This document shows, piece by piece, positions 1,340 to 40,045 of a stretch of 46,855 nt of DNA. The first letter of the stretch is position 1, and each line of letters opens with the position of its first letter. The notes below the pieces were generated by a model. The model ran no database searches. It was not told where the DNA came from and saw only the letters and a program-made list of their open reading frames with translations. The stretch covers positions 1 to 46,855 of the forward strand of contig JBAYJF010000001.1 of NCBI GenBank assembly GCA_041665245.1, given 5' to 3'. The DNA comes from Candidatus Margulisiibacteriota bacterium. GTDB taxonomy: Bacteria; Margulisbacteria; WOR-1; O2-12-FULL-45-9; XYB2-FULL-48-7. A program made the position numbers and the translations under genes.

Positions 1340-2143
1340 TTAAAATTTCATCCTCTTTTTTACATTTGAAATAATTTCTCTTATCCCGCTGACTCCCTTT
1401 TTATCACTTTCTTTGCCGCTTGTCGAACTATGTTTTTCGGGAGCCTTGATCACTTTAAGCGCAACGGTCGCGGCTCTTTGTTCGGCTTCTTTTTTATTGG
1501 CTCCCCGCCCGATCCCGTATCTTTTCCCTTTTATTTTAACCTCGACCCAAAAAACCCGCCTGTGCTCCGGCCCGGTCTCTTTAATGACCTTATAACGGGG
1601 TAATTCCCATTTCTTTTTTTGTACATATTCCTGCAAAGCCGACTTATAATCTCCGATATAGCCAGCTTGAGATACAAGTTCGATTTCGTCATTTAAGTTC
1701 CCGATTATCAGGTCCCTTACCTTCCCGAGTCCCGCATCCAGAAACACCGCTCCGATCAAAGCTTCGAAGGCATTGGCAACATTTGATTTTCTCTTCCGTC
1801 CGCCGCTTTTCTTCTCGTTCTGGCTAAGAAGAATAACCTCGCCCAGCCCCATTTTTTTGCCGATATTCCCCAGCGTTTCGTCGGAGATCACCGAGGCCCT
1901 TATTTTCGTAAGCGCTCCCTCGGCTAACTGGGGGAATTTATTATATATATATTCGGTAACAATGAGCTTCAAAACGGCATCGCCCAGGAATTCCATCCGC
2001 TCATTGTCCGGCAAGTTATTCTCGTGGCCGGAGGAGCTATGCGTCAGCGCCTGGTTGAGAAGGGTAATATTTTGAAAAGATATATTGAGATTTTGCTGGA
2101 GGGTTTCGAGCTCTTTTTCTCTCTCGGAGGAAAGCTGTATCAT
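1340..2143 (-). CDS. rnc: ribonuclease III
   Basis: It carries the RNase III signature (ERMEFLGDAVLKL) and a C-terminal dsRBD-like region (GPEHRRVFWVEV...GANKKEAEQRAA). A Lys/Ser-rich C-terminal tail of about 35 aa follows. Confidence 0.9.
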   Translation of the reverse strand: MIQLSSEREKELETLQQNLNISFQNITLLNQALTHSSSGHENNLPDNERMEFLGDAVLKLIVTEYIYNKFPQLAEGALTKIRASVISDETLGNIGKKMGLGEVILLSQNEKKSGGRKRKSNVANAFEALIGAVFLDAGLGKVRDLIIGNLNDEIELVSQAGYIGDYKSALQEYVQKKKWELPRYKVIKETGPEHRRVFWVEVKIKGKRYGIGRGANKKEAEQRAATVALKVIKAPEKHSSTSGKESDKKGVSGIREIISNVKKRMKF

Positions 2144-2171
2144 TGACTTTATATTTTACATTATATACAAT
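2143..2171 (+). promoter_or_regulatory. sigma-70-like promoter TTGACT-N17-TACAAT for the 2210-4377 operon
   Basis: TTGACT lies at 2143-2148 and TACAAT at 2166-2171, exactly 17 nt apart. They sit about 38 nt upstream of the ATG at 2210, which has a GAGGT Shine-Dalgarno (SD) sequence. Confidence 0.5.
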
Positions 2172-3123: not shown

Positions 3124-4377
3124 ATGGGAAAGACTATCGCTGAAAAGATCCTCTCAAACCACTGCGGCCGCGATGCAAAGGCTGGCGATATCGTTATTGC
3201 CGATCTTGATTTTATGATCGGCCAGGACGGAACCTCCGGCGTAGCGATCGATTCCTTTCGTAAAATGGCCGCACCCAAAGTTGCCGATCCAAACAAAATT
3301 GCCATTATTATCGATCACAGCTCCCCTTCCCCAAATTCGGGCGTATCCGCGATCCACAAAAAGATCCGCGAATTCACGACCGAGCAAGGGATCAAACTCT
3401 ATGATATCGGCTGCGGCGTTTGCCACCAGCTCACTCCAGAGCAAGGCCATGTGGTTCCGGGAGATCTAGTGATCGGGGCCGACTCGCATACCTGTACTTA
3501 TGGCGCGATCAATGTATTTTCAACCGGAATTGGTTCGACCGACCTTGCCGCCGGAATGATCTCTGGAAAGCTCTGGTTCAAAGTTCCGGAAACGATCAAA
3601 ATAAATTTTAACGGATCGCTTCCTAAAGGAATTTTCTCAAAAGATTTGATCCTGGCCCTTATTGGAAAGATCGGCGCCGACGGTGCGACATACTTAGCGC
3701 TGGAGATCGGCGGACAAGCAATTGATGAGATGTCGGTCGATGCCCGCTTCACCATCTCGAACATGGCAATTGAGTGCGGCGCCAAAGCCGGCCTTATGCC
3801 AGCGGATAGTAAAGTTATGGAGTGGGTAAAGAAACATTCCAATAAAAAACCGAATCCTGTTCAAGCCGATAAAGATGCTATTTATAAGCAAGTAATTGAC
3901 ATTGATGTAACAAAACTAGAGCCGCAGATCGCCAAACCTCATACGGTAGACAATGTTGTTCCTCTTTCGCAAATTGGCAAAGTTTCCATTCAACAGGGAT
4001 TAATTGGAACTTGTACAAACGGGCGGCTGGAAGACTTTCAGATCGCGGCAAAGATCTTAAAAGGAAAAAAAGTTAATCAGAATTGCCGGTTGATCATTGC
4101 GCCTTCATCAAAACAAATTCTTATGGATATGATCAAAGATGGAACCTATCAGACGTTGCTTGAAGCTGGCGCGGTTGCCGTTACTCCTGGGTGTGGACCA
4201 TGCGTTGGCACGCACAACGGCGTTCCTTCCGACGGGGAAAATGTGATCTCAACTGCGAACAGAAACTTCAAGGGAAGAATGGGGAACGTTAATTCGTTTA
4301 TCTACTTAGGTTCGCCGGCTACCGTAGCAGCATCGATGCTGGAAGCCAAGATCGCTGATCCGAGGAAGTATTTGTAG
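3124..4377 (+). CDS. leuC: 3-isopropylmalate (or homoaconitate) dehydratase large subunit, short aconitase-family type
   Basis: The 417-aa ORF has aconitase-family motifs (GADSHTCTYGA, GTCTNGR, PGCGPCVG, NRNFKGRMG). Confidence 0.85.
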   Translation: MGKTIAEKILSNHCGRDAKAGDIVIADLDFMIGQDGTSGVAIDSFRKMAAPKVADPNKIAIIIDHSSPSPNSGVSAIHKKIREFTTEQGIKLYDIGCGVCHQLTPEQGHVVPGDLVIGADSHTCTYGAINVFSTGIGSTDLAAGMISGKLWFKVPETIKINFNGSLPKGIFSKDLILALIGKIGADGATYLALEIGGQAIDEMSVDARFTISNMAIECGAKAGLMPADSKVMEWVKKHSNKKPNPVQADKDAIYKQVIDIDVTKLEPQIAKPHTVDNVVPLSQIGKVSIQQGLIGTCTNGRLEDFQIAAKILKGKKVNQNCRLIIAPSSKQILMDMIKDGTYQTLLEAGAVAVTPGCGPCVGTHNGVPSDGENVISTANRNFKGRMGNVNSFIYLGSPATVAASMLEAKIADPRKYL

Positions 4378-4385
4378 ATACTATG

Positions 4386-4410
4386 TTGATATCGCAAATT
4401 GCGATATCAA
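4386..4410. repeat. perfect 12+1+12 palindrome TTGATATCGCAA-A-TTGCGATATCAA between convergent leuC and the 364-aa ORF
   Basis: Read directly from the sequence. The arms are exact reverse complements. It could be a bidirectional terminator stem or a binding site for a dimeric protein. No T-run follows it. Confidence 0.6.
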
Positions 4411-4461
4411 GATTTGCAACCGGTGACAAATTGGCCCTGGTTCAATTATTTTCTAATTTAA

Positions 4462-5556
4462 CTATTCGCCGTATACTTTTGCCTTTAATATAAGAACATT
4501 TTGCCTCGGGAAAAACTTTCGCACAGTCCACCTCTCCCCCCTGGAAAAAACCACCGTTTTCGAAAAAAAGTCATATTCTCTCCAAAACATAAAATCGGTA
4601 TCCCCAAATATCCTTACTAAGGCAAGTCTAACCGCCTCTTCCTCATTAACGTTCCCTATTGCGTAATAACTTCTGCTACTTGAATAATCATATTGCTTAT
4701 ATACATTCATCCCTTTTGCTAATCCAAGGTTAATAAGCTCAAGCCTTAGCGCCGTTTCTTTGTCTCCCGGAAATACTTCTGAATTGATAGAGACTATTCC
4801 TTTTTGCTCTTGATTGTTTTGTGCGTCTCGAATAAACATGCGCGTAATGAAACGTGATGCAAGGGTCAAAAGAATTCCTCCTCCGACAATTCCTAACAAA
4901 GGAGCAACAGTAGTTATCACAGCCGTTGCCCACAAGCACGCTGGCACAGCCACAGTACTTACCAACGATAAAAGCATAAAACCTGCTCCAAATTTATGCC
5001 CAAAGCTAAGTTTAAATGGCGGGATTTCTAATTTTGATTTTTCTGGAGCAACAACTGAGCTTTTTGGTGCGACGGCTGCAGCCAGTTCCGCTGGGACGAC
5101 TCTGCCTGCGCTTGCTGTTTGCGGACTTTTTGCGCTTCGTACTGGTTCGCCCTTTTGCTCACCTTTACCAAATTTACCTTCTTTCTTTTTTGCTTTAACT
5201 CCAAAATTCCCTTCTAGCTTAACCTTCCCCGCCAATGCCGGCCTTGCCGCAATGGCCGCCGCAAGATCTTCGCTTGTAAGGACGATCCCAACTAAAGCAC
5301 TTATCAATTCTCTGGCCGCTAAATCATCTGCCGGTCTGGAATCCCCTTCAATTCTAATTTGAGTGATCCCGATATTATGTAAAATTCCCAACCGTACACC
5401 TTTTTTCTCTTCCACTCCTTTGCTGCAATCTACTGTTCCCCGAAAACCGGCTAAGCCGCGCCCGATCCTATCCTGCGCCTGCAAAACCTGTTTTTTCCCT
5501 AAGTCGGCATTCCTTCTTATCCCTCTTGTTGTTACCGTTATCTGCACTCCAGCCAT
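4462..5556 (-). CDS. hypothetical membrane protein (orphan) with a central bilobed hydrophobic domain
   Basis: The 364-aa ORF has a strong SD (AAGGAGGA) 6 nt before the ATG. Residues about 189-237 form two adjacent hydrophobic helices (FGAGFMLLSLVSTVAVPACLWA / VAPLLGIVGGGILLTLASRFI). A Lys/Gly-rich linker spans residues about 111-145. I recognise no family motif. Confidence 0.6.
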   Translation of the reverse strand: MAGVQITVTTRGIRRNADLGKKQVLQAQDRIGRGLAGFRGTVDCSKGVEEKKGVRLGILHNIGITQIRIEGDSRPADDLAARELISALVGIVLTSEDLAAAIAARPALAGKVKLEGNFGVKAKKKEGKFGKGEQKGEPVRSAKSPQTASAGRVVPAELAAAVAPKSSVVAPEKSKLEIPPFKLSFGHKFGAGFMLLSLVSTVAVPACLWATAVITTVAPLLGIVGGGILLTLASRFITRMFIRDAQNNQEQKGIVSINSEVFPGDKETALRLELINLGLAKGMNVYKQYDYSSSRSYYAIGNVNEEEAVRLALVRIFGDTDFMFWREYDFFSKTVVFSRGERWTVRKFFPRQNVLILKAKVYGE

Positions 5557-5579
5557 TTCAAATCCTCCTTAATTAACAA

Positions 5580-5604
5580 AAACCCAGATTATTCATCTGG
5601 GTTT
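5580..5604 (-). terminator. terminator-like hairpin between the 887-aa and 364-aa ORFs, inside the predicted leader of the 364-aa ORF
   Basis: The minus strand reads AAACCCAGAT-GAATA-ATCTGGGTTT followed by TTG. That gives a 10-bp stem, a 5-nt loop and a U-tract. Confidence 0.55.
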
Positions 5605-5622
5605 AAACTAACCTCATAGCTT

Positions 5623-5652
5623 TTTATCTGTACATCCTAGGATAAATTTCAC
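5623..5652 (-). promoter_or_regulatory. GTGAAATT-N16-GATAAA promoter-like motif (sigma-28-like geometry) upstream of the 364-aa ORF
   Basis: On the minus strand, GTGAAATT occupies 5652-5645 and overlaps the TGA stop of the 887-aa ORF. After a 16-nt spacer, GATAAA occupies 5628-5623. The same architecture occurs at four other sites. Confidence 0.55.
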
Positions 5653-8312
5653 CCTTTCGGCCGCAGGGAATACCCTTCAGCGAGCAACTCCGCAACGGAA
5701 ATAAAGTCCGGCCGACGATAGGTTTCTTCCACATCAAATATTTCCACCCGTTGCGTAAAATCTCCCGCCCGCATTAATGTTTCATATCTTCCACGAACCC
5801 CCTTCTTGGTCGAACGCAATAACGCTTCCGGGTCGCGATATTTCCCTTTCGCTAGTGCGGCGCTTACTTCATCAACCAAAACTGTTCCTTCTCTGCCGAC
5901 AGAAAGAAGATCGTGCTGAGAATTTCTAAAATGAACCGGCAAAACATGTTCGCTCCCATCAGAAAAAGTTGTAATTATATAAATTCCATAACGAATAGAT
6001 AGTTCGCGCTGGTCACCCAGCATTGTTTTTTGGATCTGCGCTTTATTCGAGTGGTGACAGCCTGCTAACATTCGGCTCCCATCACCCATTAAAATCGGCT
6101 TAACCGGCAATCTGCAAAGCCTTCCTCTATATTGCCTTGCAGCAAATATTTCTTCTCGGGCGATCCCGCTTATTGATCTTTCTCTTTCCGTTATGTTTCC
6201 GGGCAGCTCCAGCGGGCCAAAATATCCCTTTTCCAGCCTAAAAAGCGGCAACCCCAAGATCCCCTTTGTTCGCAGAACATGGTCAAAACCTCTTACGAAA
6301 AGCTCAGCTGCAGTAAGGCCGGGCTTCCCGGTCTCTATTGGGCTTAATAATTCCGTACCACCATCTTGAGGCATAATAAGATAACCGGAATATCTTTGTG
6401 TTACTACTTTTGTACACAGGTACCGAGCTAATACGCCGGCAGTTAATTCAACCAACGCCTCCTCAAAAACACCTAGCGCTAATTCGTCCTCTCGAATCCC
6501 TTTTGTATCGATAATTTTTACGGCTGCTTTGTCTAGATCCACTAATAAATGGATCTCTTTTCCCGTAAACGTACCTTCCTCTGCCAGAGAGGCCGCAACT
6601 TCAAAAGTTTGGCTCTTTAAATGCCGAACAGTTATTGATCGGAGCGATCCGCGTAAAAAATCCCCACCGGCAAGCTGATATTTCACTGTGGTTTCAGCTA
6701 ACATGGAAGGAGCAAATAATAGATCGACCGTTTCCATAGACTTATGACGACGCTCCGAAATTTGATCGGCCACCGCCATTAAACCCTCTTCCGCACCCCG
6801 AACTAAATTCAAAAAGTAGCGAATGAATTCGACATTTAAATTTTCAACTTCGCGCCTTGCAAGCTCCAAAGCAAATTGATCGACCTGTTTATCAACTTCG
6901 CCCAATACTACTGCAGGCGATTTAACGGCTAACCCGCCTACCTTTCCGGCCAATCCAAAAGCAAGAGCCGATAATCCGCACAAAAGAAAATATCTTGATA
7001 ATAATATTTTATTTCCCTCAAATTTAGGAGGGTAAAGCTGCAGGTGTTTTATCGGCAACTCATAAAGCAGATACCCGTCTGCCCTTTTAATCGCGACTAA
7101 CATTGAAGCCGTATTTGGCCGACTGAAAATATTTACACGACCAGCCTCTGCCGAATGCTTGGCACTAAATTCAGCTGCATGCAAAAAACAGGCCGAACCG
7201 CTCAACCCCGCCTTTAGAAATACCCGATTGAGGGCTTCCACCGATTCTTTTATCTGTCGATCAAGAATAAGGGCTATCCGGGGGGCATCATCGGCAGACA
7301 ACCGCAAAACCGGCCCGCATTCGGTCAAGGAGGCCAAAGACAACCCGCTTTCATAAAACCGGCAAATTGCATCAAGAAAGGAAATGCGCAAAATTTCTAT
7401 TTCGGTATCAATTACTGTCGGCGCGCTCGCCGTTCTTTTATTTCCATTTCCCTCCAAGTGAGGCGCGACACCCTCTAAAACACCCTTTGCCGCATTTCTA
7501 TCCCCTTTCGCCGATAATTGCTCAAATTCTCGATAACTCCTTTGCATTGACAGCAGCCTTGCTGCTTTTTCATCAAGGGCAGCTCCCAAAATAAATCTAT
7601 CCAGAAGATCTAAAAATTCAAAGTGCGCCAGGCCGACAATTTTTGTATGAAAACATTCCTGGTCATCAGCAAAATTCCCTTTGTTTTCAACGACCAATTC
7701 TGCACACACCCTCATTTTTCCACGATCAAAAGTTGCCCCTCTCATTCTTTCATTTGCTCTGCCGCGAAACAGGACCTCTTCGGCAACTAAGCGCCTGCAC
7801 TCTAGATCAATGGACGTCAAACAAGCAATATCGCTGCCTAAGTCTATTAGCCTATTTGGAAAAGTTTTAAGCAGGCGGCTGCCAATAACAAAAACGCCGA
7901 TAAAATATCTCAAATCTCTATTGCCGGCAGGAGGAAAAGGTTTTACCTTTATAAACTCCTCATACCGACTCCTTATGGCTCTTCCGGTTTCCGGGCTAGC
8001 ATGCAAGGTTCTCTGAAGAGCATTTGCGGCATTTTGAAAATTATCGCTATCTGGCGCATCTCTTTCAATAACATACATGTAATGGTCCGCCGCAAAAGCG
8101 TGATTAGATTTCTTACGTGCAAGATCTGCCAAGGCAACATAACAACTATAAATTTCAGACGGCGCAACTTGCCCGGATCTTTCGATCTGCACAAGCAAAT
8201 TCTTAGCAACATGTAGATTTCCCGCGCGATGTGCTGTAGAAAAATCCGTCATTGTTGGCATTTTTTGTTGCCGAACCTCTCTTTTTCCCCACCGTACTCC
8301 ACTTGGTTTCAT
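5649..8312 (-). CDS. large hypothetical protein (orphan, 887 aa)
   Basis: This is a long uninterrupted ORF on the strand opposite the flanking leuC and leuD. I see no catalytic or nucleotide-binding motif. The composition looks richer in Ala/Arg/Leu/Gly than the neighbouring genes. The start is uncertain: the ATG at 8312 has no SD, and alternative ATGs lie at 8261 and 8252. Confidence 0.6.
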   Translation of the reverse strand: MKPSGVRWGKREVRQQKMPTMTDFSTAHRAGNLHVAKNLLVQIERSGQVAPSEIYSCYVALADLARKKSNHAFAADHYMYVIERDAPDSDNFQNAANALQRTLHASPETGRAIRSRYEEFIKVKPFPPAGNRDLRYFIGVFVIGSRLLKTFPNRLIDLGSDIACLTSIDLECRRLVAEEVLFRGRANERMRGATFDRGKMRVCAELVVENKGNFADDQECFHTKIVGLAHFEFLDLLDRFILGAALDEKAARLLSMQRSYREFEQLSAKGDRNAAKGVLEGVAPHLEGNGNKRTASAPTVIDTEIEILRISFLDAICRFYESGLSLASLTECGPVLRLSADDAPRIALILDRQIKESVEALNRVFLKAGLSGSACFLHAAEFSAKHSAEAGRVNIFSRPNTASMLVAIKRADGYLLYELPIKHLQLYPPKFEGNKILLSRYFLLCGLSALAFGLAGKVGGLAVKSPAVVLGEVDKQVDQFALELARREVENLNVEFIRYFLNLVRGAEEGLMAVADQISERRHKSMETVDLLFAPSMLAETTVKYQLAGGDFLRGSLRSITVRHLKSQTFEVAASLAEEGTFTGKEIHLLVDLDKAAVKIIDTKGIREDELALGVFEEALVELTAGVLARYLCTKVVTQRYSGYLIMPQDGGTELLSPIETGKPGLTAAELFVRGFDHVLRTKGILGLPLFRLEKGYFGPLELPGNITERERSISGIAREEIFAARQYRGRLCRLPVKPILMGDGSRMLAGCHHSNKAQIQKTMLGDQRELSIRYGIYIITTFSDGSEHVLPVHFRNSQHDLLSVGREGTVLVDEVSAALAKGKYRDPEALLRSTKKGVRGRYETLMRAGDFTQRVEIFDVEETYRRPDFISVAELLAEGYSLRPKG

Positions 8313-8317
8313 ATCCT

Positions 8318-8350
8318 AATATCATCGTCAATAGATCGGATTAATTTCAC
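8318..8350 (-). promoter_or_regulatory. GTGAAATT-N16-GATGAT(ATT) promoter-like motif upstream of the 887-aa ORF
   Basis: On the minus strand, GTGAAATT occupies 8350-8343. GATGAT follows at 8326-8321 (16-nt spacing), with an alternative GATATT at 8323-8318. Only 5-8 nt remain before the ATG at 8312, so the gene may be leaderless. Confidence 0.45.
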
Positions 8351-8366
8351 AGAATATGGCAAATCA

Positions 8367-8374
8367 TGTATAAT
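8367..8374 (+). promoter_or_regulatory. -10 box TGTATAAT placed 7 nt upstream of the leuD ATG (leaderless-type arrangement)
   Basis: TATAAT lies at 8369-8374 and the ATG at 8382. There is no SD between them. Confidence 0.45.
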
Positions 8375-8381
8375 AAATATC

Positions 8382-8885
8382 ATGAACCTAAACGGAAAAG
8401 CACGCCGGCTGCCTCAAAATGATGATATAAATACCGATTACGTCATCTCGGGACGCTATAAGTTCAAGATCCAGGACCCGGTTGAACTGGCGACCCATGT
8501 CATGGAAGACCTGGATCCCGGCTTTTTCAAAAGAGTTGAAAAAGGGGATTTTATGGTCGTTGGCCGCAATTTTGGCTGTGGATCATCGCGCGAACAAGCC
8601 CCGATGGCGATCAAATATGCCAATATTTCCGCGATCCTGGCCAAATCTTTTGCCCGCATCTTTTATCGCAATTGTTTCAACCTAGGGCTCTTAGCGATCG
8701 AATGCGACACTGACGGGATTGACGAAGGCGACCAGCTCGAAGTTGACCTGGACGGCGGCAAGATCATAAATAAAACAAAAAAGACGGAGATCAAGGTAGC
8801 GCCGCTTCCCAAAACTATGCAAACCCTTTTGGCCGACGGGGGGCTGATCGAACATTTCAAAAAGCATCATGGATTCAAAGTTTAG
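8382..8885 (+). CDS. leuD: 3-isopropylmalate dehydratase small subunit
   Basis: The protein from Met52 of the ORF track (MNLNGKARRL...) is 167 aa. It carries the small-subunit motif GRNFGCGSSREQAP. The 51 upstream codons of the ORF overlap the opposite-strand 887-aa gene and are not credible. Confidence 0.85.
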   Translation: MNLNGKARRLPQNDDINTDYVISGRYKFKIQDPVELATHVMEDLDPGFFKRVEKGDFMVVGRNFGCGSSREQAPMAIKYANISAILAKSFARIFYRNCFNLGLLAIECDTDGIDEGDQLEVDLDGGKIINKTKKTEIKVAPLPKTMQTLLADGGLIEHFKKHHGFKV

Positions 8886-9627
8886 CATCCGCGGTTTCAT
8901 TGAGACCTCTTTCCTCGACTGGGACGGAAAAATAACCTCGGTCATCTTTCTCCCCAACTGCAACCTAAACTGTTCCTATTGCAGCAATAGCGTTCTGGTC
9001 AATTATCCTGAAACCCTGCGAGAAATCGATTTTGAGCATATTAAAAGCTTCATTGTTGAGAGAAAAGATTTTATCGATGGGATCGTAATAACAGGAGGAG
9101 AGCCGACCATCCAACCGTGGCTTATCGACTTAATAAAAGAAATAAAAGCGCTCGGTTTTCTGATCAAACTCGATACAAACGGCATTAACCCCAAAGTCCT
9201 CTCCCAGCTCCTAAGCCCTGCCTGCCGGCAGGCAGGTCCGAACTCCGAACTCCCAACTCCCAACTCCCGACTTGTTGATTATATAGCTATGGATGTTAAA
9301 GCCCCGCTAAATGAAAAATACAAAGAAGTCTGCGGAACAGATGTAGACCTGAATGCCATACGGGAAAGCATTAAACTGCTGATAAATTCCGGGATCGAAC
9401 ATGAATTCAGGACAACCGTTGTTGCGGGCAGCCTGGATAATGAAGATATTAAAGAGATCGCAAAAAGCATTGTCGGAGCAAAAAAGTTTGCGCTCCAGCA
9501 ATTTGTTCCCCGGATCGCCGGGGATGAAAAGTTAAGAGAAACCATCCCCCACTCAAAAGAGAAACTGCAAGAAATGGCTAAAATCGCCAAGGAATATATC
9601 CCTAACACCATTGTGCGGGGGATCTGA
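8869..9627 (+). CDS. radical SAM activating enzyme (anaerobic ribonucleotide reductase activase-like)
   Basis: The N-terminal SFLDWDGKITSVIFLPNCNLNCSYCSN contains the CxxxCxxC cluster motif. GGEPT is also present. The ORF overlaps the leuD end by 17 nt. It carries an in-frame palindrome plus heptamer insertion at 9217-9270. Confidence 0.75.
   Translation: MDSKFSIRGFIETSFLDWDGKITSVIFLPNCNLNCSYCSNSVLVNYPETLREIDFEHIKSFIVERKDFIDGIVITGGEPTIQPWLIDLIKEIKALGFLIKLDTNGINPKVLSQLLSPACRQAGPNSELPTPNSRLVDYIAMDVKAPLNEKYKEVCGTDVDLNAIRESIKLLINSGIEHEFRTTVVAGSLDNEDIKEIAKSIVGAKKFALQQFVPRIAGDEKLRETIPHSKEKLQEMAKIAKEYIPNTIVRGI
9217..9236. repeat. copy 1 of the perfect 20-bp palindrome CCTGCCTGCCGGCAGGCAGG, inside a CDS
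   Basis: Exact 20-mer, identical to the copies at 25064-25083 and 29527-29546. Here it is translated in frame as PACRQAG. Confidence 0.9.
9238..9270. repeat. heptamer stutter block (CCGAACT x2, CCCAACT x2, CCCGA) abutting the palindrome
   Basis: Read directly from the sequence. It is translated in frame as PNSELPTPNSR within the radical SAM ORF. Confidence 0.8.
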
Positions 9628-24964: not shown

Positions 24965-25036
24965 TAGCCCCACAGGGAATCGAACCCTGGTTCTTAGCTT
25001 GAAAAGCTAGTGTCCTAACCCCTAGACGATGGGGCC
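24965..25036 (-). tRNA. tRNA-Glu (anticodon UUC)
   Basis: The minus strand reads GGCCCCATCGTCTAGGGGTTAGGACACTAGCTTTTCAAGCTAAGAACCAGGGTTCGATTCCCTGTGGGGCTA. It has a 7-bp acceptor stem, an anticodon stem CTAGC/GCTAG with loop TTTTCAA, and a GGTTCGATTCC T-arm. CCA is not encoded. Confidence 0.85.
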
Positions 25037-29487: not shown

Positions 29488-29517
29488 GTGAAATTTTCAT
29501 AATTTGAAACTGATATT
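29488..29517 (+). promoter_or_regulatory. GTGAAATT-N16-GATATT promoter-like motif upstream of the 523-aa ORF
   Basis: GTGAAATT lies at 29488-29495 and GATATT at 29512-29517. A structured leader of about 85 nt follows. Confidence 0.55.
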
Positions 29518-29603: not shown

Positions 29604-31175
29604 ATGAGCAGCATTTCAGGAACGGCCCCGGTTATCAGAAAAGTTACCATCAGAGGAACAGACCAGATCGGCGCAAGAAGGAGAATGACCGATCAGGCCG
29701 CAAAAGAATATTTAGGAAGCAAAAGATACGGGGTATTAAAGACCGATGTTGCCAGAGTAATTCGGGGAACAGACAGCTGGAAAGCTTTTTTTATAAATCC
29801 TCTCGATGAAGTGCTTTTCCCTAAAGAAAACATCGACTCACTAATAAGTGTAGCCGGCTTAGATGTTCAGACTGAATCCGCCTTTAGGGCGTTGATCAAA
29901 CAAGATCATCCTGGAGCAATAGTAGAAACGACTGATGGACGACTTGTTGCTCTTCGTTTGGATGATTTTGAAGGGGTTGCGCTAACCCCGACCATTGACC
30001 CCACAAGCAACATGCAAACTTTTGTTTCAGGCCCCGTGCTAGAAAGAGCTGAAAGAAGGCTATCAGAAATCATTGGGACAGAGGAAACAAATCCAGGCAG
30101 GGTCACCGTTGCACATAACGCTTTGCCAAATTGGGATACAATTAGATTTGCGTTAACCCCAACAGATTCCATGGTAATAACTCAGGCAGCAGCCGGTGAG
30201 CCCTGGCCCGCATTTAAAGTGGTTCCTTTTCAACATTTAAAAATATCCCTTTCAGCTTCGGCTTTGAATTATGGGCAGCAACTATTTGAGGGAATGAAGG
30301 CTCAGAGGACCAAGGATGGAAGGGTTGTTCTCTTTAGGCCGCTTGATAACGCCAGAAGAATGAAAGGCGGCGCGGAAAGGATCCTCTTAAATCCTGTTCC
30401 GGAAGAATATTTCCTTGCAGCCGTAACCGCCGCCGTCCGAGCAAATGAACGCTGGATCCCGCCATATGGCAAGGGAGCGCTATACATAAGACCGGTCCTA
30501 ATTGGTGATGGGGGAGTTGTTGGTATAAATCCTGGGCCGCAAGATACCTTTGGTATTCTTTGTACTCCGGTTGGGCCATATTTCCAGGGAGGAATGAAAG
30601 CCATTTCATTGCTTGTTCCGGAAGATTATCATCGCTCTGCCCCTGGGAATCTGGGTTATATTAAGGCCGGCGGGAACTATACCGCAGGAATGATGCTTGC
30701 CCGGGATGCGCATGCCGCGGGTTTTGCCGAAATTCTATATCTTGATGCGATTAAGAATTTGTATCCTGATGAGGTTGGGGCCGCGAATTTCATCCTTGTT
30801 TATAAACACAAAAACGGGGATCGCACTATTTTTACCCCGCCTCTTGAGAATGGAACCATTTTACCGGGGGTCACAAGAAGAAGTTGGATCCAAATAGCAA
30901 GAGACGCCGGGATCGAGGTTATTGAAAAGATCCCCACCATTAACAGAATTATGAAGGACGAAAGATTTGTTGAAGCCGGCTGCTCGGGAACGGCGGCGGT
31001 TATCTCCCCTATTGGTAAAATCCAATATAAAGGCGCAACAAGAGAATTTGGAGATGGATTAACTCCGGGCTCTGTCATGCGAATGCTTCATGGTAGATTA
31101 ACAGCGATTCAATTGCTGGAAGCTCCAGATATCTATGGCTGGGTACATGAAGTCAATATGCGATCCATAGCTTAG
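29604..31175 (+). CDS. branched-chain amino acid aminotransferase (fold-type IV) fused to an unknown ~175-aa N-terminal region
   Basis: From about residue 180 the protein is collinear with long-form BCATs (FALTPTDSMV, LNYGQQLFEGMKA, LFRP..N..R, YIRP, and the PLP lysine context GYIKAGGNYTAG). Residues 1-175 have no motif I recognise. An AAGGGG SD is present. Confidence 0.75.
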   Translation: MSSISGTAPVIRKVTIRGTDQIGARRRMTDQAAKEYLGSKRYGVLKTDVARVIRGTDSWKAFFINPLDEVLFPKENIDSLISVAGLDVQTESAFRALIKQDHPGAIVETTDGRLVALRLDDFEGVALTPTIDPTSNMQTFVSGPVLERAERRLSEIIGTEETNPGRVTVAHNALPNWDTIRFALTPTDSMVITQAAAGEPWPAFKVVPFQHLKISLSASALNYGQQLFEGMKAQRTKDGRVVLFRPLDNARRMKGGAERILLNPVPEEYFLAAVTAAVRANERWIPPYGKGALYIRPVLIGDGGVVGINPGPQDTFGILCTPVGPYFQGGMKAISLLVPEDYHRSAPGNLGYIKAGGNYTAGMMLARDAHAAGFAEILYLDAIKNLYPDEVGAANFILVYKHKNGDRTIFTPPLENGTILPGVTRRSWIQIARDAGIEVIEKIPTINRIMKDERFVEAGCSGTAAVISPIGKIQYKGATREFGDGLTPGSVMRMLHGRLTAIQLLEAPDIYGWVHEVNMRSIA

Positions 31176-31228: not shown

Positions 31229-31258
31229 GTGAAATTTTTCATTTTACCTTCCGATAAC
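31229..31258 (+). promoter_or_regulatory. GTGAAATT-N16-(CC)GATAAC promoter-like motif, 7 nt upstream of the ATG of the 722-aa ORF (leaderless arrangement)
   Basis: GTGAAATT lies at 31229-31236, CCGATAAC at 31251-31258 and the ATG at 31266. There is no SD. Confidence 0.6.
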
Positions 31259-31265
31259 TATTCGT

Positions 31266-33434
31266 ATGAATAGAACAAGCCCAGCGCCTGCAACAGGGCG
31301 ACCACAAAGACCAAGAAGAACGGCCCCAACTGTTCAATATCAGCTTATTTGTCACAACCTCCCCTTGTCACCAAGACAGGCCGGCCGTGTTATCGAGGCC
31401 CTAACACAAACTGGGCGCAATGGTGGGCTGGAAAGTCTGCGCGCAACGGAAATTGTAGCTTTTAAAGCCGCCGGAGGGAACGACGCCGACCTGCAAGTTC
31501 CAGGCGAATGCCGAGGAAAACTCCTTAATCTACTTGAAGGACAGGAAAGAGCAGTATATATATCATTTTTGCTCCGTTTTGCGGCCGCGCATATGGTCGC
31601 CGAACAATATAGCGACGCAAGAGACACTTATGGCGCAATATTAATACCCTGCCGAGACAACGTTCCCGCCAAAATTGGGCAAAAAGCCGCTATAATTGCA
31701 AAATCGCTTTTACCGGCTGCAAAGCCGATCTTGGCTCTCTTTTCCGCATATACCGAAACCCTCGCCTCGCCAGAAGGCCTGGACTGGAAAGAGGCGGCTT
31801 TCAATGCAGCAATATCCGCAATCGTAGAATCATCCGCAAACCCTCAAATAGACGGGGAAACTTTATTTATAAAACTGGCCCCTCTTTTCAATTTTCCTGA
31901 ATCGGCTCCGGCAGAAGTAAATTCGGCTGCCGATTTCTATTGCAAAGCCGTCAGCTTAACTCTTCGCGGATTGCTGGATGCAAGCGTTCCGGCAACCGCA
32001 ATCGTTCACGCCTTCGGAAGACCAATTATCGAAGAACTTGAAATGGCGCTGGCATCAGACGGCAATGAACACGTTTTATTTCCGCTCCGCCTATCTCTTA
32101 TGATCGCGGTTCTTCTTCATGAAAAGAGCCTTCCTTTCGATAAAATTGAAGAAGCCATTCGTCCTTTTGGCGAACCGGTTGTTCAGGCTGCATTGGAATC
32201 CGAGATATTTTTTCTTGCCGGCGCAAAAATACGCACAGGGATCGAGATGGCGCCTCCACGAATTGAAGTTGTCCCCCTCCCGCTCGATGCCGCAGAAGCC
32301 GCAGTTGGCCTTGTTTTAGATCTCGCCGCCGGAACAAGGGATATCAAAGAAAATCCCCGTACAACAGCACAAGAATTTTATGCTCTTTACCTACAAGCAG
32401 AAGAAGTCCATAAGGAAGAAATTGGCGCAACACTAGCAGAAACGGCGGTTACATGTGCAAACGAACAGCCCGAAAAAATAAAAGAACTCATCTTATTCTT
32501 AAACACTCTTTTAGATAAACATGACGAAAAATTAACCCCTCATTTAAATAGAGGGACGATCGCCATGCTCTTGTCTCCGTCCATAAAAAGAAAGCTTGTT
32601 GCTTCTGCATCTGAACTATGGCAAAAGGTTAAAATCGCGGGAGAAAAAGCCGGGCAGGAACTGCTCGCGCTACCACCTTCCATCCCTAAATCAGCGTCAA
32701 AGGGAATTCGCACGCAAAAGAGCACCGCCCCGCAAATCCCTATCGCCGAAGAATATTTAGCCTTAGAAGGAATTTCTGCTGATGACATCCTTTTTATTGA
32801 TTTTTTCTTCACCCGCTTCGCTACTTTTCCGATCGTCCAGGCAATGTTTGGGGAAATAGAGGCAACTATTTTTTGTGATCCATATTCTACAACCGACCGC
32901 TTTTATGCAACGATCCTCCATACATCAAAAGGGAGCGAAAAAGCGCTCCGCCAATTTGCAACGCTGCTAAAAAAAACCGACGGGCTTCCATACACAAGAA
33001 TTGAAGCAACGCTCAAACTAGCTGACAATAAATTGGTTGATCTGGCCTTTCAAGTCGCCCCTCCGTTGGCACCCATCATCACGCAAACCAACATTACTTT
33101 ATTTAGGATCCAATCTTTTTATGCCTGGGCTCACATTTTATCCAAAAGAATAGAAGCCTATATCCAAAAACCTCACGACTATAAGGCCACGGCACATTCA
33201 TTGATCTGCACTTTTAGTTTCTGCGCGGCAAAAGTTCCGATGCTGGCGGACAATATCCCAAAGAATCACCCTTTCTCATATTATGCCGGCCATGTAAAAG
33301 ATTTTGTGCTAACGCAAACATTACCCCGCTACGGAGAATTGATCAGAGGGGGAAACAGCGCCGTAAAAGCAGCAGTCGCTGCCGCAAAGGAGACCTTGTC
33401 GGCAGGCAAGGGTTTCACTCTCTATAAAGAATAA
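31266..33434 (+). CDS. large hypothetical protein (orphan, 722 aa), predicted mostly alpha-helical
   Basis: This is a long ORF with a Pro/Arg/Thr-rich N-terminus (MNRTSPAPATGRPQRPRRTAPT) and an Ala/Leu-rich body. I recognise no enzymatic motif. Confidence 0.6.
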   Translation: MNRTSPAPATGRPQRPRRTAPTVQYQLICHNLPLSPRQAGRVIEALTQTGRNGGLESLRATEIVAFKAAGGNDADLQVPGECRGKLLNLLEGQERAVYISFLLRFAAAHMVAEQYSDARDTYGAILIPCRDNVPAKIGQKAAIIAKSLLPAAKPILALFSAYTETLASPEGLDWKEAAFNAAISAIVESSANPQIDGETLFIKLAPLFNFPESAPAEVNSAADFYCKAVSLTLRGLLDASVPATAIVHAFGRPIIEELEMALASDGNEHVLFPLRLSLMIAVLLHEKSLPFDKIEEAIRPFGEPVVQAALESEIFFLAGAKIRTGIEMAPPRIEVVPLPLDAAEAAVGLVLDLAAGTRDIKENPRTTAQEFYALYLQAEEVHKEEIGATLAETAVTCANEQPEKIKELILFLNTLLDKHDEKLTPHLNRGTIAMLLSPSIKRKLVASASELWQKVKIAGEKAGQELLALPPSIPKSASKGIRTQKSTAPQIPIAEEYLALEGISADDILFIDFFFTRFATFPIVQAMFGEIEATIFCDPYSTTDRFYATILHTSKGSEKALRQFATLLKKTDGLPYTRIEATLKLADNKLVDLAFQVAPPLAPIITQTNITLFRIQSFYAWAHILSKRIEAYIQKPHDYKATAHSLICTFSFCAAKVPMLADNIPKNHPFSYYAGHVKDFVLTQTLPRYGELIRGGNSAVKAAVAAAKETLSAGKGFTLYKE

Positions 33435-37212: not shown

Positions 37213-37276
37213 AAATTATAACATATCTTTCGGGATTGGGGATTCGGGAATTTGGGATTCAATTATGTTATAATTT
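37213..37276. promoter_or_regulatory. symmetric divergent promoter module: a 12-bp perfect inverted repeat places a TGTTATAAT box in each direction, flanking a heptamer stutter
   Basis: The arms are AAATTATAACAT (37213-37224) and ATGTTATAATTT (37265-37276). On the minus strand TATAAT is 10 nt from the pyrH ATG (37204). On the plus strand TATAAT (37269-37274) is 9 nt from the ATG at 37284. CGGGATT-like units occupy 37231-37260. Confidence 0.55.
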
Positions 37277-37283
37277 CTCCACT

Positions 37284-38327
37284 ATGGCAATGTTATTCCC
37301 ATATCTTGAGTTGGCCGCTTCTTTATTTATCCTGCTCCTTGCCTTTGAGATAATGACCGTCCATTTTGACAATAAATTGGAAAAATTCTTTGCCTTTTAT
37401 GCTCTGGTAGCCTTCTTTGCTGCGATCCTTACCTACTCCTACCGGATCGCTTTTACACTTGAGATCGCCAGAGACATTAATCGAATTAGCGCCTGCCTGC
37501 TCGCTTTTACTTTTGCTCTTTTTTCCCAGTTCGCGGTCTATTTCACTAAAAACGAATCGCTCCTAAACAATCGGATAAAGCTGGCTCTTTTTTATCTCCC
37601 GCCCGCAATAATCTCCTGCTTATTTTTATTTACAGATTCCATGTACTTGCGCTATGAAATTCAAAACATCGGGATCGTCAGCACCCCTGCTCCCCTTTAT
37701 TTGTTGTTTGCGCTTGAAACCGCCTTTTATTGCGGTCTTGGGATCGTCTTGCTTCTTAAATATTCAAACGTAACAAAAAAGAATCTGGAACGGCAGCAGG
37801 CGCTGATCATTGCGATCGGCTCGCTAATTCCCCTTTCGATCGGGATCCTGCTCGATCAGTTGATCCCCGTATTTTTTGGGATCAGGCTTACGCCGCCCAC
37901 GGTAGTTTTTGATATCGCTTTCATGAATTTATTTATTTATCTGGCGATGCGCAACTACAGCCTGTTTTCCCTCTCTCCCGCAAAAGCCGCACAAACCATT
38001 ATCGAAACCATGCCCAATTCGCTTATCGTTACCGATCTTGACGGATGTATATTGTTTATTAACGACGAAGCAAGAAGTCTTTTTCATGACGCAAAACATG
38101 CGGTTGAATGCAAACCGATAAGCGCTTTATTTAAAGATAAAAAGAAATTTGATCAGCTCTATAAAGAAGTGGTCGAAAGAAAGGAAGTTGTAGAGCGCTT
38201 CGAAGCCGAGCTAATAGACCCTCTGGGAGAAAAGATCCCCGCCTTGATAAACGCCAAGATCGTCCGCCAAAAAAACTTCGGCGAGCTGATTGGGATCGTT
38301 TTTATTATTCGGGACGTTAGGGGATAA
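37284..38327 (+). CDS. membrane protein with a multi-pass N-terminal domain and a C-terminal PAS-like domain, with no output domain
   Basis: I place the start at MAMLFPYLELAAS. About 7 hydrophobic helices are followed by a PAS-like segment (IIETMPNSLIVTDLDGCILFINDEA...GIVFIIRDV). The ORF ends right after the PAS segment. Confidence 0.55.
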   Translation: MAMLFPYLELAASLFILLLAFEIMTVHFDNKLEKFFAFYALVAFFAAILTYSYRIAFTLEIARDINRISACLLAFTFALFSQFAVYFTKNESLLNNRIKLALFYLPPAIISCLFLFTDSMYLRYEIQNIGIVSTPAPLYLLFALETAFYCGLGIVLLLKYSNVTKKNLERQQALIIAIGSLIPLSIGILLDQLIPVFFGIRLTPPTVVFDIAFMNLFIYLAMRNYSLFSLSPAKAAQTIIETMPNSLIVTDLDGCILFINDEARSLFHDAKHAVECKPISALFKDKKKFDQLYKEVVERKEVVERFEAELIDPLGEKIPALINAKIVRQKNFGELIGIVFIIRDVRG

Positions 38328-38333
38328 GGCCCT

Positions 38334-39947
38334 TTACCCCATCAACTTTTCATAAATCTGCGCCATATACTGCTGGGCAACTCTTTGGGGAGTATATTCG
38401 TTTTGCGCCCGCTCCATTGCAGCCATTCTCATTCCCATAAAGAGCTGGGGTTCTGTCTTTAATTTTCTCGCCAATGCGACCAATCCATTCCAAAAGATAT
38501 TATTTTCTTCAATGGCTCTTGCAGGGTCGCCATTCAAAACGCTCCCAAATGCCATCCCATAATTATGGGCGGTTAGATTTCGGGTCCCCAAGACAGTCTC
38601 CCACTCTTTTTCTTGCGCTGCCCAATATTGAGCGCTGCCAAGAATATCCCGGAGGCCGCCAACTTCATTTGCCAGAAGCAGAGGCCCTTGCGCCTGCAGC
38701 GTCATAGCAAATAGCCCGCAAGGTTCAAACATTGACGGCATTAGCCCGATCTGGGCCCACTTTAAGCCGTCTTCAAACCTTTCTTGAGAAAACGGATAAT
38801 ATGATAAGGGCATTTTTCTATCCTTGCCAAGCGCCTCAAGCCGTTCTTGCGTTTTTTTGTCACCATCTGCAATGACCCGTATATCAAGCAACTGTTGCTC
38901 GCCTAAGGCGGACAAGACCCCCTGAATCGCTGGAAGCCCGTTCAATAAGTAATCGTATCCCTTTTGGGGATCAAGCCGGTTCGCCATTAAAACCCTGACC
39001 GGGCCAGACGGGCCTTCAATTGATTTTGCTACCTTGGAAGGAAGCAAGCCGTTTAATATCCCGATCACATCTCTGCGGCCTAAAATATCTCCATAACTTC
39101 GGACCGGGCCGTACGAAAAGCCGGTGCTCCCTATCTCTCTCGCATAAGTGGGCGAAACAGTAGTTAGTTTTTTGGACGCGATCATTGCCAGCGCTAACAG
39201 GTCGGCCGTTCCTCCCCGTGTCGCCCTATCAGGCAAGCTCAACTGGAGCGAAGCTAATACGCTCGCGTCGGCGATCGTAGTATAGGCAGGGTTGTGGATC
39301 GTAAAGGCCGTTGGGATCCCGGCACCATTCACCAAAAATGTCGCTAAACCGGTCAAATGATCATTCCCATGGAAAATGATCCTCTCTCCGGCATTTGCGG
39401 CGGCATTTAATTTTTGTGCAATTTGTGCCAAAGCCAGATTAAAAACCAGCATTGCTTCGGTCATCTTCCCGCCCTTGTATATCCCTCCCTCGCATTCCCC
39501 CTCCGGCGCAGTTAATTTAGTACTTATTTCGGAGGTTCTATTGCCGTAAACATCAAAGGCAAAATAATGGGGTTCAGACACTTTTCTTATGCTTATCGTT
39601 GGGAGGCCTAATTCATCTCTTGCCGCTATGGCAACCAACTTTACCTCCACATCTTTTCCCGGCACTTTTATGCTAAGCTCCATATCGCCGGCATCGCTCC
39701 TGGAATTGTCGTATTCATAACTGGCTCCGGAATATGGATTGACACTTACCGCACTGACCCCTTCTTTCGTTAAGCCAAGGTGAAGAGCCCCGATAGCTTG
39801 CCCAAATCCCCACCGATGCGGCGGAATATCATTTCTATATCTTCTTCCTTCCGTCGGTGTAGGCTCGTGCCCCGCCAATAAAACGACCGGCCTTCTTACA
39901 TTCCCTTTTCTGTGCGCAAAAACCGCGTCTACTACTCGATTTACCAT
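38334..39947 (-). CDS. divergent glycogen/starch-synthase-like glycosyltransferase (GT5-like, GT-B fold)
   Basis: GlgA-like collinear motifs are present: HGNDHLTGL (compare H.HDW..G), FTIHNPAY, TVSPTYAREI and EPCGLFAMTLQAQGP....EVGGLRD. The canonical N-terminal KTGGL loop is replaced and interrupted (HEPTPTEGRRYRNDIPPHRWGFGQAIGAL). A strong SD (TAGGAGGA) is present. Confidence 0.7.
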   Translation of the reverse strand: MVNRVVDAVFAHRKGNVRRPVVLLAGHEPTPTEGRRYRNDIPPHRWGFGQAIGALHLGLTKEGVSAVSVNPYSGASYEYDNSRSDAGDMELSIKVPGKDVEVKLVAIAARDELGLPTISIRKVSEPHYFAFDVYGNRTSEISTKLTAPEGECEGGIYKGGKMTEAMLVFNLALAQIAQKLNAAANAGERIIFHGNDHLTGLATFLVNGAGIPTAFTIHNPAYTTIADASVLASLQLSLPDRATRGGTADLLALAMIASKKLTTVSPTYAREIGSTGFSYGPVRSYGDILGRRDVIGILNGLLPSKVAKSIEGPSGPVRVLMANRLDPQKGYDYLLNGLPAIQGVLSALGEQQLLDIRVIADGDKKTQERLEALGKDRKMPLSYYPFSQERFEDGLKWAQIGLMPSMFEPCGLFAMTLQAQGPLLLANEVGGLRDILGSAQYWAAQEKEWETVLGTRNLTAHNYGMAFGSVLNGDPARAIEENNIFWNGLVALARKLKTEPQLFMGMRMAAMERAQNEYTPQRVAQQYMAQIYEKLMG

Positions 39948-40015: not shown

Positions 40016-40045
40016 CTTATCGGGCCGGCTTTTTCATAATTTCAC
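40016..40045 (-). promoter_or_regulatory. GTGAAATT-N16-(CCC)GATAAG promoter-like motif upstream of the GT5-like ORF
   Basis: On the minus strand, GTGAAATT occupies 40045-40038 and CCGATAAG occupies 40023-40016. Confidence 0.6.

Follow-up and report, generated by a model that had tools for sequence, protein, structure and literature searches.

A two-gene segment between leuC-like and leuD-like genes of a Margulisiibacteriota bacterium: a probable lineage-internal rearrangement at a recurrently broken junction

Introduction

LeuCD and HacAB are heterodimeric dehydratases of the aconitase family, composed of a large and a small (swivel-domain) subunit. In this work, we describe a locus in which a gene pair of this type is separated by a segment of about 4.0 kb that carries two open reading frames (ORFs), orf364 and orf887, on the opposite strand. 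The locus was analysed within a window of 46,855 nt, by which we mean the whole stretch of DNA under study (Candidatus Margulisiibacteriota bacterium, GenBank assembly GCA_041665245.1, contig JBAYJF010000001.1, positions 1 to 46,855 of the forward strand). A first-pass annotation of this DNA had placed the end of leuC at 4377, the start of leuD at 8382 and opposite-strand ORFs of 887 and 364 amino acids (aa) between them, and these coordinates proved exact:

3124-4377, plus strand: leuC-like large subunit of a LeuCD/HacAB-type dehydratase, 417 aa (Aconitase Pfam model, E = 9e-97)
4462-5556, minus strand: orf364, an ORF of 364 aa (ORF map)
5649-8312, minus strand: orf887, an ORF of 887 aa (ORF map)
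8382-8885, plus strand: leuD-like small subunit, 167 aa, intact, 76-82% identical to close relatives

Both flanking genes resemble the LeuCD/HacAB enzymes in that they exceed the cut-offs of the subunit subfamilies. The large subunit scored 563 bits against NF001614 (cut-off 385) and 528 bits against TIGR02086 (cut-off 410), and the small subunit scored 177.7 bits against TIGR02087 (cut-off 109). They differ in that the LeuC, LeuD and HacA/B equivalog models were not reached. The large subunit stayed under the cut-off of the LeuC (LEU2) model TIGR02083 (499 vs 611), the small subunit under that of the LeuD model TIGR02084 (171 vs 246), and the same was true of the pair and the HacA/B models. 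The names leuC and leuD are therefore used here as family-level labels only. Since, in addition, neither leuA nor leuB lies nearby, the substrate (isopropylmalate, homoaconitate or other) was left unassigned.

The locus is also comparable to operons disrupted by insertion. As in those, a coupled pair (ATGA overlap, internal Shine-Dalgarno sequence) is interrupted and the distal gene gains a promoter-like site. The differences are that no insertion sequence (IS) element, integron, transposon or phage is present here, that one junction is broken repeatedly within one clade by unrelated cargo, and that the distal gene is apparently rescued in three split loci by a -10 box located 7-9 nt from its ATG.

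The promoters of the inserted genes are closest to those of sigma-28 (FliA/SigD/WhiG), which have the form TAAA-N15-GCCGATAA. In the sigma-28 promoter of Pseudomonas aeruginosa fliC, GCCGATAA lies at -15 to -8 and TCTAAAG at -36 to -30 (PMC12784957). The bipartite geometry, (G/T)AAA-N15-octamer, is common to both, and the clade-wide -10 logo, GCCGATAW, agrees with the consensus in PMC12784957. The -35 box here is TGAAATT, not TCTAAAG or TAAAGTTT, and transcription is in most cases predicted to start 0-12 nt from the start codon. At the protein level, the N-terminal third of orf887, with its predicted stacked helical hairpins, weakly resembles TPR/alpha-solenoid scaffolds (PilF, YrrB, LapB, NlpI), whereas its other ~500 residues, the conserved C-terminal domain among them, match no solved or viral predicted structure in whole-chain comparison.

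The reading that we favour, with moderate confidence, is a lineage-internal rearrangement at an often-broken junction, involving a phylum-specific gene and an ORFan membrane gene, and not an acquisition of foreign DNA.

The insertion at the leuC-leuD junction

The large subunit is 85% identical to that of candidate division WOR-1 RIFOXYB2_FULL_45_9 and 81-82% identical to those of Saganbacteria/Margulisiibacteriota metagenome-assembled genomes (MAGs). The host is thus a Saganbacteria (WOR-1, Margulisiibacteriota) relative. A comparison of the junction in related genomes, as the first-pass annotation had proposed, showed that the insert is absent from six close relatives (L002, L004, L005, L083, L085 and L088). 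In these six, leuC and leuD overlap as ATGA (TTATGA; ...AAATATTTATGAA...) and the Shine-Dalgarno sequence of leuD (GAGGAA) sits within the 3' end of leuC. The gene order of the left flank (dihydroorotase (DHOase), RNase III, TPR protein, leuC) and of the right flank (leuD, a radical SAM gene that is not always present, Zn-peptidase, miaA) is conserved. This synteny was found in L002 and L083 and partly in L004, L084 and L085. The ATGA overlap in the relatives and the kept synteny of the flanks indicate a clean insertion of about 4.0 kb (about 4378-8381), exactly at the ancestral overlap. The stop codon of leuC is rebuilt in the window, from TTA TGA to TTG TAG. No relatives of either inserted ORF were found in 160 leuC loci from other genomes and metagenomes. 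The event removed the translational coupling of leuD together with the Shine-Dalgarno sequence inside the leuC 3' end.

The earlier statement that the two genes are almost always adjacent holds across the sampled phyla, where leuD lies at most 300 nt from leuC in 120 of 153 informative loci, but not in the Saganbacteria clade, where the pair is split in 8 of 14 loci. The cargo found after leuC differs between the split loci:

Window: orf364 and orf887
L003 (11257-12354): tRNA methyltransferase, with leuD absent within 10 kb
L082: bestrophin-like membrane protein on the minus strand
L084: ORFan of 198 aa
L086 (5438-6352) and L087 (11232-15096): radA and clpC
L089 and L090: secreted protein or carB, with leuD 6 kb away in L090

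In the neighbor-joining tree of LeuC, the split loci are interspersed among the intact ones. Several independent splits are the simplest reading of this pattern, to which a single-gene tree adds weak evidence. In this clade, the junction is a recurrent breakpoint. The split of the pair is in itself a routine event of genome evolution. Its value is that the clade provides a natural series of operon breaks, in which coupling was lost repeatedly and a -10 box, placed 7-9 nt ahead of the ATG, apparently rescued the distal gene. It offers a simple, testable route of operon break-up and repair.

In several genomes of the Saganbacteria clade (L003, L086 and L087), leuD is missing from the stretch of up to 10 kb that follows leuC. 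The 198-aa ORFan of L084 was also considered as a remnant of orf887 or orf364; this was tested and rejected.

Expression signals of the split pair

The following signals were found at the edges of the insert and between its two genes:

8346-8374, plus strand: sigma-70-like promoter of leuD, TTCACA-17-TATAAT (11/12 matches)
4386-4410, no strand assigned: perfect palindrome of 25 nt, located between leuC and orf364, which are convergent; it forms an 11-bp hairpin on both strands
5580-5604, minus strand: intrinsic-terminator-like hairpin between orf887 and orf364, a 10-bp stem followed by UUUUUGUU
5563-5570, minus strand: strong Shine-Dalgarno sequence of orf364, AAGGAGGA, 6 nt before the ATG (read from the sequence)

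The TATAAT box of leuD (8369-8374) ends 7 nt before the ATG, inside a divergent orf887/leuD spacer of 69 nt (8313-8381); both features had been described before, and both are present. This promoter and the divergent promoter of orf887 have overlapping -35 boxes. A scan of the region for sigma-70-like sites gave 11 sites vs 11.4 expected from shuffles, which is the chance level, and the leuD site was therefore judged by its position and not by enrichment. At the split leuD of L084, TGTATAAT is placed 7 nt before the ATG, and at that of L090, the distance from TGTTATAAT to the ATG is 9 nt. (TG)TATAAT thus ends 7, 7 and 9 nt before the ATG in the window, L084 and L090, respectively, with no Shine-Dalgarno sequence, so that the leuD transcripts are predicted to be leaderless. 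This arrangement suggests a leaderless rescue of split leuD by a -10 box close to its ATG. After the loss of coupling, one -10 box in the right place would be enough to regain expression by a short evolutionary path. In the window, leuD would now most likely be transcribed without a leader, from a sigma-70-type promoter of its own. The window and L084 have TGTATAAT-N7-ATGAACC in common, which could reflect convergence or a shared origin of the split.

The palindrome at 4386-4410, also reported before, is indeed perfect and is unique both in the window and among 169 loci. It occurred in no shuffle and has no U-tract. It probably acts as an RNA end hairpin or a bidirectional terminator, and it may be an operator. 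leuC would now end at its rebuilt stop codon, followed by this hairpin. The hairpin at 5580-5604 has 10 pairs, with the stem closed by TTT and followed by TTGTTAATTA, and so combines the stem and the U-tract by which intrinsic terminators were scored. The predicted start of orf364 transcription, near 5616, lies upstream of this hairpin, which would therefore sit in the orf364 leader and might act there as an attenuator; the folded leader gave z = -3.4. The Rfam search of the window returned only tRNA at the gathering threshold, plus a chance snoRNA hit in the insert.

A promoter class with sigma-28 geometry

Both inserted genes are preceded by a promoter of the class TGAAATT-N13-GCCGATAW. The first-pass annotation had noted that the insert brings its own signals, GTGAAATT-type motifs at 8350-8318 and 5652-5623, and these belong to a bipartite class that is enriched both in the window and in the clade. 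The members with a gene behind them in the window are:

8322-8350, minus strand: promoter of orf887, GTGAAATT-N13-GACGATGA, predicted start near 8314
5623-5652, minus strand: promoter of orf364, GTGAAATT-N13-ACAGATAA, predicted start near 5616
29488-29516, plus strand: promoter upstream of a 523-aa gene (unknown N-terminus and aminotransferase class IV)
31229-31257, plus strand: promoter upstream of a 722-aa gene that no Pfam model matches, at a distance of 36 nt from its ATG
40017-40045, minus strand: promoter upstream of a 537-aa GT5/GT1 glycosyltransferase

The string GTGAAATTWATCC occurs exactly twice, at 5640-5652 and 8338-8350 on the minus strand, and the orf364 promoter overlaps the stop codon of orf887. 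GTGAAATT alone is not enriched in the window (6 observed vs 2.9 expected), and GTGAAATTWATCC with mismatches is not significant by itself. Significance was obtained only for the bipartite pattern: TGAAATT-N16-GAT was found 6 times vs 0.44 expected, and none of 100 shuffles reached 6. Five of the six sites are correctly oriented and precede the start of a gene. The sixth match, at 46229-46254 on the minus strand, has no ORF of at least 90 aa behind it and could drive a small ORF or an RNA.

The test in the clade was anchored on TGAAATT alone and covered 323 kb of Saganbacteria/Margulisbacteria loci. GAT was found exactly at +16 in 26 of 118 TGAAATT sites, vs 0-7 sites, mostly 1-4, at other offsets. 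The logo over the 26 sites read G18 C14 C17 G A T A23 W. In 2.0 Mb of loci from other phyla, GAT was found at +16 in 6 of 382 TGAAATT sites, which is the chance rate. On these counts, the GTGAAATT-type motif is a genuine promoter class of this lineage. The GAAA-N15-octamer spacing is exact in all instances, and the element reads TGAAATT. Counted from the first T of the motif, most start codons are at a distance of 34-47 nt, and transcription is predicted to start at +35. Most start codons are therefore 0-12 nt from the predicted transcription start, and many of the mRNAs are predicted to be leaderless or short-leadered. For orf887, the predicted start at 8314 is 2 nt before the ATG at 8312, so its mRNA would be leaderless.

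The motif precedes genes of the orf887 family (described below) in L162, L164, L165, L171 and L172, with near-matches in L168 and L170. Its distance to the gene in L164, L165, L171 and L172 is the same as for orf887. It is conserved before these genes, though the proteins share only 20-30% identity. The same class was found before the 198-aa ORFan of L084, a formylglycine-generating-enzyme (FGE-sulfatase)-like protein of L083 and a 471-aa ORF of L004, which are minus-strand, lineage-specific ORFs in other variable slots of the syntenic block. Altogether, the genes behind these promoters comprise ORFans, LacI-type regulators (as judged from their sequences), a RelA-like HD protein, a metallophosphatase and a glycosyltransferase, as well as an aminotransferase fusion. 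A promoter class defined from the sequence alone for an uncultivated phylum is of practical use. In MAGs, it helps with the annotation of regulons and of start codons. It also marks genes that are specific to the lineage and allows leaderless transcripts to be predicted.

The element ATTATACA, located upstream of the -35 box, was tried as a shared cassette end and dropped, because it was inconsistent across instances.

The orf887 family and orf364

The two inserted ORFs had been described as orphan genes with no recognisable family. For orf887 and orf364 alike, Pfam, NCBIfam, PADLOC-DB v2 and PHROGs gave nothing usable (in PADLOC, no family at E <= 1), in line with that description. It did not hold for orf887 in an exhaustive HMMER scan of 1.84 billion representatives (E <= 1e-3), which returned a family of 28 representatives, i.e., the query's own protein and 27 others. 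The closest, P0003, is 32% identical (E = 3e-101) over orf887 residues 43-885, and P0004 is 26% identical (E = 3e-47) over residues 47-887. Nearly all members are 840-900 aa long, and about 20 beyond P0003 and P0004 share chiefly the C-terminal ~200 residues. This part contains the motifs RLPVR, APWER..PLRE.QQ.LLGD, YGLYI.TTFSDG, G.FRDP..LLKGT and TT..RP. The alignment of the family shows invariant Q741, T761, Q834 and P848 (P0001 numbering), and none of the invariant residues (L, G, Q, T, P) looks catalytic. The only Pfam domain in any of the 28 members is a C-terminal NOV_C (DUF3883) domain in P0023 (1143 aa; residues 984-1070, E = 4e-16). All four named NCBI accessions, which represent 3 representatives, come from WOR-1 or Candidatus Margulisbacteria. 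As far as its members are named, the family (~870 aa) is thus confined to WOR-1/Margulisbacteria.

A word-index search for homologues of orf887 returned only the protein itself, and the family profile A1 did likewise. The relatives were missed even with the profile, which points to the limited sensitivity of that search. No orf887 relatives were found in JGI metagenome contigs or IMG/VR, and tblastn against plasmid records gave nothing.

AlphaFold2 predicted orf887 with a mean confidence (pLDDT) of 38.7 from the single sequence and 81.8 with a 22-sequence alignment. In the latter model (867 aa), an N-terminal TPR-like alpha-solenoid is predicted at about residues 1-350. Behind it, the model has mixed alpha/beta middle domains, with two small beta-sheets that very long helices keep apart and another region of mixed structure, and, at the end, the conserved alpha/beta domain of ~200 aa. 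In whole-chain Foldseek searches of PDB and BFVD, only the N-terminal part was matched, by TPR proteins and weakly (E >= 0.017); the best target-normalised TM-score was 0.52 (YrrB). The family profile matched designed consensus TPR proteins of PDB, again weakly, at positions 25-90. The Pfam TPR model gave no match at threshold on the single sequence. The interest of the family is that it is phylum-restricted, has no Pfam model and is predicted with confidence (pLDDT 82, 22 sequences) to have a fold that is mostly unlike anything solved.

The genes of the family stand alone among housekeeping genes, in slots that differ between genomes:

Between rpe and ribD, or between rpe and relA, downstream of pknB-PASTA: L164, L168, L170, L171
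Between gidA and pyrH: P0019 (1237 aa), in a neighbourhood syntenic with 33-43 kb of the window
Between queC and purA: L165
Between dapF and a PTPS gene: L172
Beside a hydrolase-methyltransferase pair: L162

In L170, the family gene overlaps relA by 4 nt. No homologue of orf364 was found at the other loci of the family. The pattern of slots fits a lineage-specific gene that changes its position, rather than a foreign island. In the window, the slot between gidA and pyrH holds a 7TM-PAS sensor fragment (37236-38327, plus strand) and a GT5 glycosyltransferase (38334-39947, minus strand).

The public gene call starts orf887 at an internal Met (8252), which gives 867 aa, and the alternative ATG at 8312 gives 887 aa. 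The longer form is favoured by the promoter geometry, which is as in L171 and L172 and places the start of transcription only 2 nt ahead of the ATG at 8312. In L162, the same promoter logic suggests that the true start of P0003 is the downstream methionine of MVRYSP. Hypothetical proteins of 864-879 aa encoded near family members (L164, 12068-14662, and L168, 12003-14642, both minus strand) were considered as paralogues and rejected by hmmsearch. They have no Pfam match, and a gene of 211-228 aa lies upstream of them.

For orf364, the description as an orphan was borne out, as no homologue was found. A search of 5.8 billion clusters, made with the word index of limited sensitivity, returned only the protein itself, and PDB sequences, IMG/VR and phage records (tblastn) held no homologue. 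The protein has an Ala/Lys/Gly-rich N-terminal half, two transmembrane helices predicted from hydropathy at about residues 189-238, and a C-terminal domain of ~125 aa. It is predicted to be an ORFan membrane protein. As a guess of low confidence, orf887 and orf364 could act as a co-regulated scaffold and its membrane partner.

Composition and origin of the segment

The earlier annotation implied that the segment was acquired from outside, and it called for a computed check of the composition. The outcome of this check was divided: the GC content is host-like (0.454 and 0.444 for the inserted ORFs, 0.45 for the host), but the GC content at third codon positions (GC3), the amino acids and the tetranucleotides are atypical. 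The richness in Ala, Arg, Gly and Leu, which had been an impression by eye, was confirmed by computation. The combined share of these residues is 0.382 and 0.365 in the inserted ORFs vs 0.20-0.38 in the other 39 ORFs, the highest and third-highest values among 41; two of the other ORFs come close, with 0.378 and 0.376. The second least typical part of the window by tetranucleotide usage is the 28-34 kb region, which contains other genes of the same promoter class. There, the genes at 29604-31175 and 31266-33434 (both plus strand) have GC3 of 0.405 and 0.414, an Ala, Arg, Gly and Leu share of 0.35 and sigma-28-like promoters. Since other genes share both the bias and the promoter class, the bias marks a gene class of this genome and not an alien segment.

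As the first-pass annotation had stated, no integrase, transposase, adjacent tRNA or direct repeat was found. There is no integrase, transposase or recombinase in the insert or among the Pfam hits of the contig's called genes. The only tRNA of the window is at 24965, and no convincing terminal inverted or direct repeat pair is present at the ends of the insert. Both flanks hold imperfect copies of the ancestral AAATATTTATGA, namely AAGTATTTGTAG at 4366-4377 and AAATATCATGAA at 8375-8386, with no equivalent in L084.

The host-like GC, the clade promoter class and a phylum-only family placed among housekeeping genes indicate that the DNA is native to the lineage, and the same facts speak against the implied foreign acquisition. 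In the mechanism that we propose, a native segment would have moved into the ATGA junction, either by relocation within the genome or by exchange within the phylum. It would consist of two genes, each behind its own promoter of the TGAAATT-N13-GCCGATAW class, with orf887 leaderless. Several points weigh against this explanation. Even the closest protein of the orf887 family has an identity of only 32%, compared with 85% for LeuC and its relatives. No orthologue of orf887 was identified in a close relative, the closest genomes having been checked at the examined loci, and orf364 has no homologue in the databases searched. GC3 of the inserted ORFs is the lowest in the window (0.393 and 0.374), and in tetranucleotide usage no 4-kb segment of the window is less typical than the insert (r = 0.90 vs a median of 0.94). 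This atypical composition is compatible with a donor from another lineage of the phylum, and equally with a class of genes expressed at a low level. No sign of a mechanism of recombination was seen. As to the promoters, those of the insert match the octamer GCCGATAA at 5-6 of 8 positions only (GACGATGA, ACAGATAA), and the terminator-like hairpin that follows the orf364 promoter fits poorly with a simple promoter model. No flagellar, chemotaxis or motility genes were seen behind the sigma-28-like promoters, and no sigma gene is present among the called genes of the 59-kb contig, which is a part of the genome. The assignment to sigma-28 is itself drawn from consensus geometry.

Among the other explanations, we consider it unlikely that there was one ancient split, shared by the window, L084 and perhaps L082 and L003, with later turnover of the cargo and a retained divergent leuD promoter region. 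It would account for the common layout of the window and L084 (leuC, minus-strand ORFan or ORFans, sigma-28-like promoter, TGTATAAT, leuD), with a divergent spacer of 64-69 nt and TGTATAAT exactly 7 nt before ATGAACC. In L082, the closest relative as judged from LeuC (86%), the gene next to leuC is likewise on the minus strand. It requires that the relatives with an intact ATGA lie outside this group or that the LeuC tree is wrong. On that tree, however, intact and split loci are mixed: L002 is placed with L082, and L083 and L004 fall between the window and L084. It is implausible that the overlap was regained as an exact ATGA, and the cargoes bear no relation to one another. The shared elements are short consensus boxes, possibly convergent, and a similar box is present in the distant L090. 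An accessory conflict module, for example a defence or toxin-immunity pair of a new type, placed where accessory cassettes are readily taken up, seems quite improbable to us. Large proteins are commonly paired with small membrane proteins in defence systems, and the two inserted genes form such a pairing. The family member P0023 is fused to NOV_C, and toxin-antitoxin-like pairs occupy the slot between the TPR gene and leuC in L083 and L005. PADLOC, Pfam and PHROGs, however, gave no matches, and the invariant residues are not catalytic-looking. The examined family members stand alone, without an orf364-like partner and co-directional with housekeeping genes, as exemplified by the relA overlap in L170.

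A genomic island that came from outside the phylum on a mobile element of an unnamed kind is, in our opinion, very improbable. The insert is indeed the least typical 4-kb segment, with low GC3 and Ala/Arg/Gly/Leu-rich proteins, and a weak imperfect target repeat may flank it (AAGTATTTGTAG and AAATATCATGAA vs the ancestral AAATATTTATGA). These signs are opposed by a GC content equal to that of the host, a promoter class specific to the clade, family members found only in this phylum, and the compositional signature and promoter class that other window genes share. Integrase, transposase, tRNA and inverted repeat are all absent, and plasmid, phage and viral collections gave no matches. Hardly any weight was given to an assembly chimera that joined unrelated DNA at both junctions. 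The contig comes from a metagenome assembly of one sample only (ENA ERZ27249449, k141_712397), but two misjoins would be needed exactly at the leuC stop and the leuD start, with genes intact and synteny collinear. Moreover, the promoter class of the insert is used by genes 25-35 kb away on the same contig, and relatives have analogous split arrangements.

A lineage-internal rearrangement thus remains our preferred explanation. A more specific form of it, which as a whole we consider less likely than not, is that the inserted genes belong to a class of self-contained single-gene units of Saganbacteria/Margulisbacteria. Each would have a sigma-28-type promoter, a leaderless mRNA and a fast-evolving, lineage-specific Ala/Arg/Gly/Leu-rich ORF, and would move from one inter-operon slot to another, or into a coupled gene pair, without a recognisable mobility gene. 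The leuC-leuD ATGA overlap would be their preferred landing or breakage site, repaired by the hosts with a -10 box that renders the distal gene leaderless, and orf887 as a TPR scaffold and orf364 as a membrane anchor would be co-regulated in a non-flagellar alternative-sigma programme.

Neighbouring genes and other variable slots

Upstream of the TPR-leuC operon, one further promoter was recorded as context:

2143-2171, plus strand: sigma-70-like promoter, TTGACT-17-TACAAT (10/12 matches)

The radical SAM gene that follows leuD (8869-9627, plus strand) shares 17 nt with the end of leuD. L004, L083 and L084 have this gene, and L002 lacks it and has a 141-aa membrane protein in the slot. Its presence and absence are a further sign of gene-by-gene turnover in the block. 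The 523-aa gene at 29604-31175 (plus strand) encodes an N-terminal part of 225 aa of unknown type fused to aminotransferase class IV, and the gene at 31266-33434 (plus strand) is the one of 722 aa.

The whole syntenic block takes small accessory cassettes between conserved genes. The slot between the TPR gene and leuC is occupied in L083 (9223-9994) by a nucleotidyltransferase and HEPN-like pair and in L005 (9478-9980) by a Phd/YoeB-like pair, both toxin-antitoxin-like by sequence inspection. In L003, the same slot contains a YajQ-like gene on the opposite strand.

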